Assembly (NCBI RefSeq): GCF_041248615.1
Contig: NZ_CP158427.1
From: Escherichia coli
GTDB lineage: Bacteria; Pseudomonadota; Gammaproteobacteria; Enterobacterales; Enterobacteriaceae
Strand: one strand, 5' to 3'
DNA: 64,000 bases
Positions within the stretch are counted from its first letter, which is position 1. Every line of letters begins with the position of its first letter. Shown here in pieces: positions 53,301 through 64,000 of this stretch. Made by a program: the position numbers.

Positions 53301-56300
53301 GAGCTATGGTGCAGCGATCACCGAATTGAAGCGCGAAGGAAAGCTGGACCGGGAGACGGCCCACCGGCAGGTGAAGTATCTCAATAACGTGATCGAGGCC
53401 GATCACGGAAAGCTCAAGATACTGATCAAGCCGGTGCGCGGTTTCAAATCGATCCCCACGGCCTATGCCACGATCAAGGGATTCGAAGTCATGCGAGCCC
53501 TGCGCAAAGGACAGGCTCGCCCCTGGTGCCTGCAGCCCGGCATCAGGGGCGAGGTGCGCCTTGTGGAGAGAGCTTTTGGCATTGGGCCCTCGGCGCTGAC
53601 GGAGGCCATGGGGGCACTGTTGCAAATAGTCGGTGGTGATAAACTTATCATCCCCTTTTGCTGATGGAGCTGCACATGAACCCATTCAAAGGCCGGCATT
53701 TTCAGCGTGACATCATTCTGTGGGCCGTACGCTGGTACTGCAAATACGGCATCAGTTACCGTGAGCTGCAGGAGATGCTGGCTGAACGCGGAGTGAATGT
53801 CGATCACTCCACGATTTACCGCTGGGTTCAGCGTTATGCGCCTGAAATGGAAAAACGGCTGCGCTGGTACTGGCGTAACCCTTCCGATCTTTGCCCGTGG
53901 CACATGGATGAAACCTACGTGAAGGTCAATGGCCGCTGGGCGTATCTGTACCGGGCCGTCGACAGCCGGGGCCGCACTGTCGATTTTTATCTCTCCTCCC
54001 GTCGTAACAGCAAAGCTGCATACCGGTTTCTGGGTAAAATCCTCAACAACGTGAAGAAGTGGCAGATCCCACGATTCATCAACACGGATAAAGCGCCCGC
54101 CTATGGTCGCGCGCTTGCTCTGCTCAAACGCGAAGGCCGGTGCCCGTCTGACGTTGAACACCGACAGATTAAGTACCGGAACAACGTGATTGAATGCGAT
54201 CATGGCAAACTGAAACGGATAATCAACGCCACGCTGGGATTTAAATCCATGAAGACGGCTTACGCCACCATCAAAGGTATTGAGGTGATGCGTGCACTAC
54301 GCAAAGGCCAGGCCTCAGCATTTTATTATGGTGATCCCCTGGGCGAAATGCGCCTGGTAAGCAGAGTTTTTGAAATGTAAGGCCTTTGAATAAGACAAAA
54401 GGCTGCCTCATCGCTAACTTTGCAACAGTGCCTTACGTACAACATCCGCCGCCTCCTGGGCAGCCTGACCACCCTGTGCAGCGATTTTACGGGCAGCACC
54501 TTTTACCTGATGTCCGCAATTATCGGTCAGTTCACCATATTTCTCCTGCACTTCTCCGGCTACTTCTTTGGCTTTATCTTCAACTTTCCCAAACATAATA
54601 TACTCCTTCTGCATTATGAACTAAGATTTAATCCGATACATTTATATCGTCCACTGGTATTTAGCAACGCACGAGCCATGTATCCTCCTCACGTAAAGAG
54701 GGAAATATTAAATTCAACAATATGATTGTAGGTTGTTTTTATTCACCTGATACTCACCAGTCTATATCAGCAAAGCCGTGGCATTTTCATTAAATGCTCA
54801 CTTCCAACAGTTCCCTGCACAATCACAGAACTCACGTAGTACACTGTCCTTATGGTCTCAATGGAGGAACATGAAATGGTTATCTCACAGGTTTAACAAG
54901 CAATCGCCATCAATAAATACTCTCAAACTGAAAAATAGTCCTGAATCTCTGGGAATAAAAACTCCAGAAGTTATACAGACAGCCATCTAAAGATATCTGT
55001 TAATAGATAACCATCAACTCCAACTCTTAGCAGGCAGTTCTGTTCGAATGTAGTGAACTAACCACTGATGCCGACACAGGAACAGTAAATTGTGTACTTA
55101 AATAATCGGTAAAATGCACAGGCCTGTATATCCGCCTCCTGCAGAAAACAATATCCCTGAGATTAACATGCCTCTGAAGATTACTCATAGTCTATTTCAT
55201 CAGTATAAAACCGCGATAACTCAGAAATAACCTTATTGATATAATTTAATTTCTTAAGACAGGTAGTGAAGTAACCGTTATTTATATTGTGTCTTTCACA
55301 AATAACTTTTCTGGAAGCACCCTCAACAATATAATCATACAGAGCATTGATAATTCGTTGACTGTGTATGGACGAAATATCTATTAATAACCAGAATTGC
55401 TCCTCAGGTACTTTACCGGCTTCCAGAACACAATATGGACAACGCGAGTTCCTCTTTTTGAACGCCGATGTTATTATGTATGAATTATCCGTTTTCATTA
55501 TCTTGTCCTCCATCTAATCATTTATAATGATAATCATATAGTCATATATAAAACAATACAATGAGGTTTAATAAAGACCTTACATAGAAATAATTCTTTT
55601 AGTATCAGATTCCTCCTGGTTTATATTTTATTTATATTAAATAATTTGATGCTATCAACCGCATATAATATCGCTCGTCGCTCCATCTCTTCTAAACTCA
55701 TACTTCGAAAATCACCTTCGCCCTCTGAATAAAGAACACATTCAAATGTTGCCTCACCATTCAGCTCAAGTTGAACAACAACCTTATCAATAAGGTGACG
55801 ATCGTAGCTTACATTTAAGTTTACTATCCGATGCCCATACATTTTACACCTGATCCTTATATTAAAATAGTTAGCTCCCTCCAAACAGACCCGAGGGAAT
55901 AAATATCACTTACATATTTGCAGCTTTGTCATATATTTTTTATAAACTCCGTCATTCAAAATACTTTTTATGTGCAGATCCATTCTGTTATTTTCCCTTC
56001 AGTTACCAGGTAATTCAACAGGTGAAATGTATTGTTTAATCAATATTACTCAAAAAAGAGACATTAAGGAAAAACACAAACACTTCATCATTATTACTTA
56101 TAATACCACTGATATGTTATAACATAACCAGGAATACTCTTAATACAAACCTGGGGGTCAGATTTCAGAGAACATCCATTGACAGTACAGCAGATCCTTC
56201 AAAGAGCCCGGCAACAGGCGAGTCGCTTTTAAAATTCACAGATAAAGGAACATCTGTTGTTCCTCTTATAGCTTTTACAGTCTTCTGGCTTTTATCATTA

Positions 56301-62300: not shown

Positions 62301-64000
62301 CATTCCTTACTTCTCACTGGCAATTGTACGGGGACATATTCCCCGCACATATCAGATATCTCAAACAGAATTGCCCAACATATTACTCGTAGGCCAGATT
62401 GAAGTTAGCAACAGCGGTAAAATCGCCTTCTTTCAGGGTGCCACCAGTAGCTTTTTTAACCCAAGTACTGTAGCGCAGGGTATTATCACCTTCTTTAACT
62501 TTTGTCGCGGAACCTGCTGTACCATCAAATGAAACCAGGCTGCCATTCGCAGCTGAGACAACTATTGCAGTCCCTGTATCACCAGTAGTACCTAACTCCT
62601 GATTCTGTCCATTGATTGTTGTACCAGTAAAAGAAACTTTCACACCATTGGTCAGTTTTCCGATTTCTGTGGCATCGCAGTTAACTAACTTGATATCCAG
62701 ATCTTTTTTTACGGAAATTCCGTCTGCATTCAAATGTGCTTTAGAAATCTGGCCGAAATTAATTGTCTGATCTGCTGATTCTTGTGCAATACCACAAGGA
62801 GCATCAATTACTGTACCTTTGAAGTTAATAACGCCCTGTCCCTGATTAGCAGCATTAACGCCAAATGAAACAGTAGAAGCAAGCATGGTTGCAATAATAA
62901 CTTTATTCATATAACAAAACCCTGAGTTGAAAAAAATACATTTTATTGAGTGGCAAAAATTCTGTCACTCAACAAAAAGTACTTTTATGTCTCATAAAAG
63001 AATGTGAATAGTTAATTATCACACGTTAAGAAGTTCGTATATTCTGCTTCACATCAAAACTCAGCTTTTCTTATTTTTGGTTAATTTTATTCAGAATTAA
63101 AAAAATCACAATAATAATGATTTATCATCGCAATTCATTTTTACAGAATAAATAACCAGAAGCAAGTTATAACAAAGAGATATTTTCTATATTTTTCGAT
63201 TTATTGCGAATAAAACACCTATAATAATAGATATTCTCAGAGTAAAAAAATATGACAATCTTCTGTTTTACATCAAAAATTGCAATAAAAGACCAAAAAA
63301 TACAAAATATATTTTTGTATAAAATTTGTTTTATTATTTCTTTATTTTCTGTTCCTGCGCCATTGTGTTTTGGGAGCCAGCAGGGGGGCACAGTGAAACC
63401 GATATTGTACAGAAAGTACAGTAATTACAGTGTGTTACCTGCAGAGAGGCTATCAGATTTCTGCTCCGGTATAGCAATCAAAAAAACAGTGCTCGCCGCA
63501 GACCGGTGACCGGGCGAAGCCCGCGAACCGGCGAGGAAGCGCAATGTATCTGTAGTTACAGTGAGCAGGTACGCCCTGAAGCCCTTTCATAAAACGGTTG
63601 TGTGCGCTGTCCTTCTGGAATGATTTATCCACATATCCGGAGGCCCGATCCAGTAAACAGATCCATGAATGATCAACAAAGGATCCATTAAAGATCCCCA
63701 TATCGCTGCAAACCTTGTCACTCATGGGCCGGGACCACGATCACATAAGCTGTGGCATGTTACTGATAAACTGTAACATGCTAATGATAAGCTGTATTCA
63801 GTAATCCATATACTGAAGTAAGTTAATGACATAAACTATGGTCAGTATGCCAGACTCAGTTGTTAAATACAGGCTGCAGGTTTTTCTTCAGTCAGTTAGC
63901 GGAGTTCTGACACACGATTTTCTGTTTATTCTTTTACTGTCCACAGGCTGGAGGCTTTCTGGAAAACGAAAATTCAGACATCAAAAAACTGTTCGGCGAG

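Follow-up and report, generated by a model that had tools for sequence, protein, structure and literature searches.

Layout and integrity of the fimbrial cluster

The window analysed here, a 64,000-nucleotide stretch of Escherichia coli contig NZ_CP158427.1 (assembly GCF_041248615.1), carries near its end a chaperone-usher fimbrial gene cluster, followed on the same strand by a gene for a PapB-family transcription regulator. An intact plasmid-borne operon of this kind on the minus strand had been predicted from the sequence (hereafter the original prediction), and the minus-strand run of open reading frames (ORFs) listed over 53500–64000 bears this out, containing every predicted ORF at the same coordinates; the Pfam matches given below are far above chance. 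Gene starts were refined from the Prokaryotic Genome Annotation Pipeline (PGAP) annotation of plasmid p14408_1 (IncFIA/FIB/FIC) of E. coli NRZ14408, which is 100% identical to positions 49000–64000. In this refined map, seven structural and assembly genes, denoted here by single letters, follow one another on the minus strand in the order A-H-C-D-J-F-G. Gene A (62383–62910) encodes a PapA/SfpA-like major pilin of 175 residues (Pfam Fimbrial, 1.2e-17), and H (61709–62296; ORF 61709–62350) a PapH-like minor pilin of 195 residues of the type that terminates or anchors the rod (Fimbrial, 2.5e-06). The outer-membrane usher C (59078–61588; ORF 59078–61648; 836 residues) matches Usher, PapC_N and PapC_C (8.6e-156), and the periplasmic chaperone D (58278–59009; ORF 58278–59150; 243 residues) matches PapD_N and PapD_C (2.1e-37). 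These are followed by J (57726–58241; ORF 57726–58250; 171 residues), an assembly protein of the PapJ family (PF14855, 1.1e-48), and by F (57185–57685; ORF 57185–57694; 166 residues), a PapF-like tip adaptor pilin (Fimbrial, 5.2e-18) whose best matches are SfpF and PlfF. Of the two subunits that had been proposed between chaperone and adhesin, F is indeed a pilin, but J is not. Gene G (56165–57157; ORF 56165–57175; 330 residues) is assigned by identity and predicted fold to the two-domain tip adhesins of the SfpG/PixG family. The interval from D to G holds J and F only, with no papK or papE homologue, which leaves a seven-gene layout. Beyond a non-coding spacer of 666 bp (55499–56164, minus strand) lies B (55181–55498; ORF 55181–55513), a 105-residue regulator of the PapB/FocB family.

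The reading frames were checked for frameshifts or decay, as the original prediction had suggested, and no frameshifts were found. By the Pap paradigm, all seven structural and assembly proteins would carry signal peptides and be exported. The gene lengths are the same or nearly the same as in the Sfp homologues, except for J. Compared with the most divergent copy of the same cluster (locus L006; 92% nucleotide identity), the ratio of non-synonymous to synonymous substitution rates (dN/dS) is 0.08 for A, 0.07 for H, 0.09 for C and 0.08 for D, rises to 0.20–0.30 for J, F and G (F 0.20, G 0.24), and is 0.13 for B. All eight genes are intact, and their dN/dS of 0.07–0.30 shows purifying selection. 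The whole 8.8 kb occurs in 20 PLSDB plasmids, in 19 of them as a single collinear alignment piece, with host sources that include humans, chickens, cattle, a baboon, pigeons and quail; among 5426 complete E. coli genomes, 29 carry the cluster. Decayed versions exist on pEB2 of the enterotoxigenic E. coli (ETEC) strain B7A and on related plasmids, where the insertion sequence (IS) IS1 interrupts the usher gene and IS629 cuts J, and the copy in the window is distinct from these.

The G+C content of the cluster is uneven, with 48–55% in H-C-D and 34–41% in A, J, F, G and B. The same mosaic of a G+C-rich H-C-D core and G+C-poor A, J, F and G is present in sfp and pix and partly in plf, so that it is an old trait of the family and no evidence of recent import. 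A recent acquisition of the low-G+C tip module, which we considered as an explanation of the mosaic, was ruled out on the same grounds.

Usher, tip module and adhesin

The usher places the cluster among Pap-like fimbriae. In searches of the Protein Data Bank (PDB), C reaches 1357.6 bits with structures of PapC and about 290 with FimD. Among the NCBIfam models, the pi-type StfC-like (894 bits), SteB-like (810) and StdB (589) models score well above FimD (291) and above the kappa-clade model PefC/AfrB (327 bits, with a curated cut-off of 752). BLASTP comparisons with annotated relatives from public plasmids and genomes agree with this. Identities to Sfp of pSFO157 are 73% for A, 80% for H, 90% for C, 95% for D, 43% for J, 37% for F and 51% for G; to Plf of pEC598 they are 68, 79, 94, 90, 44, 36 and 22% in the same gene order, and to a chromosomal Pix-type cluster 61, 64, 87, 86, 39, 39 and 49%. 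A published usher tree groups Plf, Sfp, Pix and Pap in the pi clade, and the same study describes Sfp and Pix as systems of seven structural genes in which PapK and PapE have no counterpart (Habouria et al., bioRxiv 10.1101/2021.07.20.453171). With a PapC-type usher, the Pap gene order and a two-domain adhesin combining a lectin and a pilin domain, the cluster is, as judged by sequence, a pi-clade fimbria of the seven-gene Sfp/Pix type. The resemblance to K88/K99/Pef-type operons suggested in the original prediction was not borne out by the usher, which is 90–94% identical to SfpC and PlfC. Since the order A-H-C-D-J-...-F-G is canonical for the pi clade, the position of the usher gene before the chaperone gene is not unusual here, and the only unusual feature of the layout is the position of the PapB-family gene.

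The J protein has 171 residues compared with 187–195 in its homologues. It has undergone internal deletions, keeps the conserved 70 N-terminal residues and the Y-D/E C-terminal end, and has the same length in an 88%-identical orthologue. Homology of the core to Sfp, Plf, the Pix-type cluster, the B7A version and a sister lineage described below ends in every case within 58020–58060, with a shared breakpoint inside J at about 58033–58045, some 200 nt or 65 codons into the gene. This suggests either a recurrent recombination junction or the boundary between a conserved and a variable domain of PapJ. Across these relatives, A, the tip genes and B are variable and H-C-D is conserved, a pattern reminiscent of the allele classes into which PapG and PlfG fall.

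No Pfam or NCBIfam family matches the adhesin G above threshold, the only hit being a sub-threshold match to MrpH_C, and a sequence profile built from 29 G homologues gave no match in the PDB. The AlphaFold2 model computed from that alignment has a mean predicted local distance difference test score (pLDDT) of 87.5, with values below 50 only in the signal peptide. In a Foldseek search of the PDB with this model, the two top matches are full-length PapG (6cd2_B, E = 1.8e-14; 7lhg_G, E = 4.8e-14), and separate matches to the lectin domain of PapG (4z3j) and the pilin domain of PapGII (2wmp_B, target template-modelling score 0.74) were recovered as well; identity to PapG in the structural alignment is 13–17%. 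On the strength of this model, G is a two-domain tip adhesin of the PapG fold, in line with the two-domain adhesin originally proposed. The PGAP/RefSeq name for the whole SfpG/PixG-like family, including G and its homologues (P0001–P0036), is 'nuclease PIN'. Given the predicted PapG fold, and since no PIN or other nuclease family of Pfam or NCBIfam matches G, this label is wrong and represents a propagated mis-annotation.

At 90% identity, the family to which G belongs falls into at least 36 clusters, whose members are nearly all about 330 residues long and are 35–97% identical to G. They come mostly from E. coli and in some cases from Salmonella, Klebsiella aerogenes and E. fergusonii. Known members of the SfpG/PixG family mediate mannose-resistant haemagglutination. 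With 49–51% identity to SfpG and the Pix-type adhesin, which compares with a reported 63% between SfpG and PixG themselves, G forms an allele class of its own within this family.

The region upstream of A and the regulator gene B

Upstream of A on the minus strand lies an AT-rich non-coding region (62911–63400), whose extent of 490 bp and low G+C content (26.7%) agree with its original description and which we presume to be the promoter and silencing region. A candidate sigma-70 promoter matches the consensus at 10 of 12 positions, with a −35 element GTGACA starting at 62968 and a −10 element TAAAAT ending at 62940, about 30 nt before the start of A. PapB binding sites typically show a 9-bp periodicity of A/T triplets. 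This periodicity was not seen in the upstream region, where A/T triplets are instead phased at 10–11 bp, which suggests intrinsically curved DNA of the kind that H-NS prefers; we take the link to H-NS as an inference from this phasing. The region is 78–81% conserved in the sister lineage (L013 and L014), and shows no homology to the upstream regions of sfp, pix or plf.

The original prediction had proposed that this region be searched for GATC sites or invertible-element repeats. It contains no GATC, where composition leads one to expect about 1.2, so that the sites are absent without being significantly depleted. Pfam scans of small ORFs around 62911–63725 and 54400–56200 revealed no PapI or FaeA homologue, and none of the small ORFs in the upstream region matches any Pfam family. 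Because PapI, an upstream PapB gene and a GATC pair are all lacking, an epigenetic switch of the Pap type, acting through Dam and Lrp, is unlikely. Imperfect AT-rich inverted repeats (63066–63099 and 63292–63326; 81–82% complementary) flank about 210 bp of the region. An invertible element at this position was considered and rejected, as the AT-rich repeats are weak and no inverted copies occur among the plasmids; the search thus yielded no GATC site and no convincing repeats. Further from A, five GATC sites at an exact spacing of 11 bp occur at 63647–63693, with another at 63739. This run lies in sequence that is 96% identical to the DNA immediately preceding repB of RepFIB in pSFO157, and the sites look like Dam sites of a replication origin lying outside the fimbrial regulatory region.

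Between A and H, a G+C-rich hairpin with a 10-bp stem (62325–62349, minus strand) is predicted, and the fold of 62290–62395 has an energy of −32.1 kcal/mol (z = −2.0). No U-run follows the stem, so this is not a canonical terminator. By analogy with the papA-papH intercistronic region, the hairpin may act as an attenuator or as a stabiliser of the messenger RNA, so that A is made in excess of the genes that follow.

The presence of a PapB-family regulator gene downstream of the structural genes, as originally predicted, is well supported. B matches PF03333 at 1.6e-32 over profile positions 14–91 of 91 and the structure of FocB (3m8j) at E = 3.6e-23 over residues 23–102, and the SRK..C and NNGYF motifs are conserved. 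We regard B, on these matches, as a bona fide PapB/FocB-family protein. Its start codon ATG is preceded by a GGAGGA Shine-Dalgarno sequence. Identity is 40–45% to PlfB and the Pix-type B proteins (45% to the latter) and 62% to the downstream B of the sister lineage, the nearest other B. In tblastn searches with four PapB-family proteins, 55181–55498 was the only PapB-family sequence in the window, with no upstream gene or remnant. In every further P-like cluster examined in which a PapB-family gene is annotated, it lies directly upstream of A; these are the Pix-type loci L005, L011 and L012, Plf on pEC598 and pFHI_NMBU_03_1, a Salmonella Give plasmid and an Edwardsiella plasmid. For sfp, 19.4 kb were examined and contained no PapB-family gene, and none is annotated alongside an E. 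albertii plasmid cluster.

The downstream position of B recurs in the sister lineage (L013:2115–10321, L014 and L015, from E. coli GCA_031955795.1, GCA_965296305.1 and run SRR12001470), in which RepFIB, A-H-C-D-J-F-G, a spacer of about 1 kb, B and the same csbD-like gene follow each other. Identity to the window is 92–97% for H, C and D, 51% for J, 38% for F and 22% for G, the last being essentially unrelated (313–317 residues). The arrangement in the window is therefore not a one-off accident. The G protein of the sister lineage matches Pfam MrpH_C and none of the Sfp, Pix-type and Plf G proteins compared, and an autotransporter gene lies further downstream in that lineage. Linkage of B to the csbD-like gene is also found in L006–L008. 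The idea that B heads a second fimbrial operon cut by IS26 was ruled out, since csbD/DUF883 and yqj-like genes, and no pilin genes, follow B in the IS26-free loci L006, L007, L008 and L013–L015.

Conservation of the spacer between G and B is uneven. Compared with L006, the B-proximal part of about 300 nt (55514–55812) is as conserved as the B coding sequence, with 2–5 mismatches per 60 nt, whereas 10–13 per 60 nt are found near G and downstream of B, so that the flanks diverge three to five times faster. This suggests a control region or a long leader of B. A weak TTGTAT-17-TATGAT element, read by eye and below the threshold of the scanner, precedes B. No intrinsic terminator was found after G or after B, which makes read-through from G into B possible, and there is no credible Rfam match in 54400–64000. 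The small ORF of 87 codons in the spacer (orf87; 55621–55884), which overlaps this conserved stretch and was originally listed as an unknown ORF between adhesin and regulator, did not survive closer inspection: it is disrupted by an in-frame TAA and several indels in L006 and by 1-nt indels in L019 and L020, and was rejected as spurious. It is not annotated by PGAP in any record, matches no Pfam or NCBIfam family and lacks third-position bias; its only two substitutions in the close relatives L007, L008 and L018 fall at codon positions 1 and 2 and are non-synonymous. A counterpart is absent from the sister lineage, and there is no similarity to the EAL-domain gene or the small ORFs downstream of G in pix, plf or sfp.

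Proposed function, plasmid setting and relation to known systems

We consider it highly likely that the locus holds an intact, P-pilus-like cluster of the pi clade and of the seven-gene Sfp/Pix type, located beside RepFIB of an IncF plasmid, and propose for it the following assembly and regulation. Pilus assembly by the Pap paradigm is established. On this pattern, the PapD-like chaperone would cap the pilins by donor-strand complementation, and the PapC-like usher would polymerise G, then F, many copies of A and finally H, assisted by the PapJ-like protein. As papK and papE homologues are absent, the tip would be short, with F linking G to the rod without further subunits. The probable start of transcription lies in the curved, 27%-G+C region upstream of A, a likely target of H-NS; nucleoid proteins would silence this region, with relief under specific conditions, and the hairpin after A may attenuate transcription. 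Production of B would depend on its own weak promoter, on read-through or on both. The protein would regulate the AT-rich promoter of A in trans, and possibly also chromosomal fimbrial switches such as fim. The analyses above establish the identities and intactness of the genes, the clade, the fold of the adhesin, the conserved layout and purifying selection; expression, the targets of B and the receptor of G are inferred.

Several observations weigh against this reading. The candidate promoter of A is a pattern match, and such matches are no commoner in the region than in shuffled sequence. No consensus promoter for B and no strong promoter on the minus strand of the spacer was found. The regions upstream of A and of B have no k-mer of 11 nt or more in common, with shared 10-mers at the level of shuffled sequence, and no operator for B could be identified in this comparison. 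J is 16–24 residues shorter than its homologues, and Sfp has been reported not to be expressed under normal laboratory conditions. Furthermore, PapB-family genes that stand apart from fimbrial genes are very frequent on IncF plasmids; tblastn gave matches in 1658 PLSDB records, in many cases at a fixed backbone position. Given this frequency, B and the operon could be linked through common descent of the whole segment from RepFIB to csbD and not through function. A second, orphan PapB paralogue lies a few kilobases beyond RepFIB/int in relatives of this plasmid (L008:20688–20960; L003:14900–15205).

The least certain point is whether B has any role in this operon. B could be an independent, trans-acting orphan paralogue, or belong with the csbD and yqj-like genes, and reprogramme host adhesins such as type 1 fimbriae while the operon is controlled by host factors only. 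We think this rather unlikely. It would fit the 666-bp spacer with its conserved 300 nt, which suggests a control region belonging to B, as well as the Shine-Dalgarno sequence of B and its low identity (40–45%) to PlfB and the PixB-type regulators, which are encoded upstream. No B lies downstream of a Salmonella relative of G, and of the orphan paralogues so common on IncF plasmids, one down-regulates fim-dependent aggregation. That paralogue, which differs from B, is carried by the resistance plasmid pMB2 and suppresses fim-dependent autoaggregation in trans, and PapB itself represses FimB-mediated switching (PMC7734786); the PapB family has been reviewed (PMC12388093). Against this, B directly follows G on the same strand in two lineages whose tip genes have diverged to 22–51% identity, no terminator separates G from B, and the window contains no other PapB-family gene that could serve the operon. 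Loss of function is a less probable alternative still: the cluster would be a silent or decaying remnant that has lost an upstream PapI/PapB module, is permanently silenced by its AT-rich region and is carried along with RepFIB. The missing upstream B and I genes, the lack of upstream homology to pix, plf and sfp, the reported silence of Sfp under standard conditions, the B7A-type copies with IS1 in the usher gene and IS629 in J, and the decayed appearance of orf87 would all be compatible with it. However, eight intact genes with dN/dS of 0.07–0.30 and their full-length presence in 20 plasmids of PLSDB and in 29 complete genomes, with a variety of hosts, are hard to reconcile with a remnant, and the diversification of the adhesin family into many full-length alleles (36 clusters) argues for function. 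We therefore judge this alternative improbable.

Phase-variable expression, by a Pap-type Dam/Lrp switch or an invertible promoter of the fimS type in 62911–63400, appears very improbable. Phase variation is known from relatives, namely pap and, according to a review, pix (PMC12388093), and the imperfect inverted repeats would be the obvious candidates for an invertible element. Yet the 490 bp contain no GATC, no PapI or FaeA gene was found, the repeats are only 81–82% complementary in DNA of 27% G+C with no recombinase gene adjoining, and all full-length plasmid copies align collinearly in a single piece with no inverted orientation. We give practically no credence to a kappa-clade operon of the K88/K99/Pef type, even though fae, fan and pef also combine a usher gene before the chaperone gene with a PapB-family gene, and B is about 52% identical to PefB over 77 residues. 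The likeness goes no further than the trivial fact that those operons, too, have the usher first. Kappa operons carry their PapB-like genes upstream, unlike B. That these genes belong to the kappa clusters is also listed in PMC7734786. The bit scores of the usher (327 for PefC/AfrB, 894 for StfC-like and 1357.6 for PapC), its identity to SfpC and PlfC and the presence of a PapJ-family gene together with PapH, PapF and PapG homologues in Pap order speak for Pap, and the usher comparisons already refute the kappa assignment at the level of sequence.

A broader hypothesis is that the RepFIB-adjacent P-like locus is a cassette system, in which the downstream PapB is an output regulator that imposes a hierarchy of adhesins and replaces the absent Pap-type switch. 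The assembly core would then consist of H-C-D and the first 65 or so codons of J (92–97% identical between lineages), and the exchangeable module of the rest of J, F, G and the downstream PapB paralogue. PapB would be made whenever the plasmid fimbria is expressed and would, for example, switch type 1 fimbriae off in a new host. This remains speculative, and we rate it as unlikely on present evidence.

The cluster is set between a replicon and a resistance island. On one side, the window ends just before the start of RepFIB repB. On the other, a csbD/DUF883-like gene (54433–54614, minus strand; Pfam CsbD) follows B, as it does in all relatives, and here forms the edge of the resistance island, where it is truncated by IS26; alignment with the full-length proteins of L007 and L013 shows the junction. 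This IS26 copy (53613–54432) lies 750 bp downstream of B and is one of four in the window, the others being at 5982–6804, 32303–33122 and 46271–47090. Beyond it are IS6100, padR, chrA, IS4321, sul1, qacEdelta1 and arr-3, a set found twice in the window, and further away aac(6')-Ib-cr, blaOXA-1, catB3, aac(3)-IId, blaTEM-1, blaKPC-2 and a fragment of an IncN-type type IV secretion system (T4SS), which substantiates the proposed location next to a resistance island. The two copies of the arr-3/qacEdelta1/sul1/IS4321/chrA/padR/IS6100 segment (36803–42950 and 48283–53612) are 100% identical and lie about 5.3 kb apart (42951–48282, with an IS26), an arrangement unlike that of the otherwise 100%-matching p14408_1. 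Positions 12803–36802 are 100% identical to 24 kb of p14408_1 that carry blaKPC-2, blaTEM-1, aac(3)-IId, aac(6')-Ib-cr, blaOXA-1, catB3 and an IncN-type VirB T4SS/eex/korA fragment, and represent an IncN-derived KPC-2 module inside the IncF plasmid; by correspondence with NZ_LT599826.1, blaKPC-2 lies at about 24301–25182. On the other side of RepFIB, a second plasmid chaperone-usher operon is present in L006 (20090–22640, K88-like faeH/faeI) and in L007 (20915–22787, flanked by AraC-type regulator genes), so that some plasmids of this kind carry multiple adhesins.

An apparently functional colonisation factor, to judge from its sequence, is thus linked to a conjugative IncF plasmid with blaKPC-2 and many other resistance genes, and because adhesin and resistance genes share one plasmid, selection by antibiotics could co-select the adhesin. 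With this cluster, the SfpG/PixG family of adhesins gains another allele class. Screens of the VFDB style would score its conserved genes as pixC, pixD and pixH and so hide the different adhesin. The cluster belongs to a well-known family and already has entries in RefSeq, with generic names. Our understanding of chaperone-usher biology is unchanged; there is no mechanistic surprise unless the downstream PapB proves to be a dedicated output or cross-talk regulator. Its recurrence in two lineages offers a natural test case for output or cross-talk regulators as opposed to input switches. We found no paper on this cluster, on its allele class or on a downstream PapB gene in a pi-type operon, which, with incomplete coverage of the literature, is an absence of evidence only.

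Among characterised systems, Sfp of sorbitol-fermenting enterohaemorrhagic E. coli (EHEC) O157:NM (sfpA-H-C-D-J-F-G on pSFO157) has the same seven genes in the same order without papK and papE. Both clusters reside on IncF plasmids next to RepFIB, and the G proteins are 51% identical over the full 330 residues. However, Sfp has a diverged tip module (J 43, F 37 and G 51%), lacks a PapB gene in 19.4 kb, is bordered by IS elements, occupies the opposite side of repB and has a non-homologous upstream region. By these identities (and 73% for A), the cluster in the window is not Sfp itself, but a distinct allele class of the same family and architecture. Pix (pixB-A-H-C-D-J-F-G), encoded on chromosomal islands linked to transfer RNA genes in uropathogenic E. 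coli (UPEC), has the seven-gene set, no PapI and an adhesin of the same G family (49%), with usher and chaperone 87 and 86% identical. It differs in having its PapB gene directly upstream of A and an EAL-domain gene after G (L005, L011 and L012), whereas the window has B downstream, with 45% identity to the Pix-type B, no EAL gene and a plasmid location.

The PL/Plf fimbriae of IncF/ColV plasmids (plfB-A-H-C-D-J-K-E-F-G) are likewise plasmid-borne, linked to RepFIB and members of the pi clade (C 94, D 90%), and allele classes have arisen in their adhesin (Habouria et al., bioRxiv 10.1101/2021.07.20.453171). In contrast to the window, plf includes K and E homologues and an upstream plfB, encodes an adhesin only 22% identical to G, and lies beyond an intM integrase gene on the other side of RepFIB. 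P fimbriae (papI-B-A-H-C-D-J-K-E-F-G) share the usher, the chaperone, PapJ, the PapH- and PapF-like genes, the PapG fold and a PapB-family regulator. They possess PapI, the GATC-I and GATC-II sites, K and E, all of which are missing from the window, where B is downstream. The papB/pefB paralogue of pMB2 (PMC7734786) is similarly a PapB-family gene on a conjugative E. coli resistance plasmid and acts in trans on fim-dependent aggregation. It has no fimbrial genes nearby, whereas B directly follows a fimbrial operon, and the pMB2-type gene of 273 nt sits elsewhere on relatives such as pGE3. By analogy, this paralogue provides the best experimental precedent for the way in which B may act in a new host.

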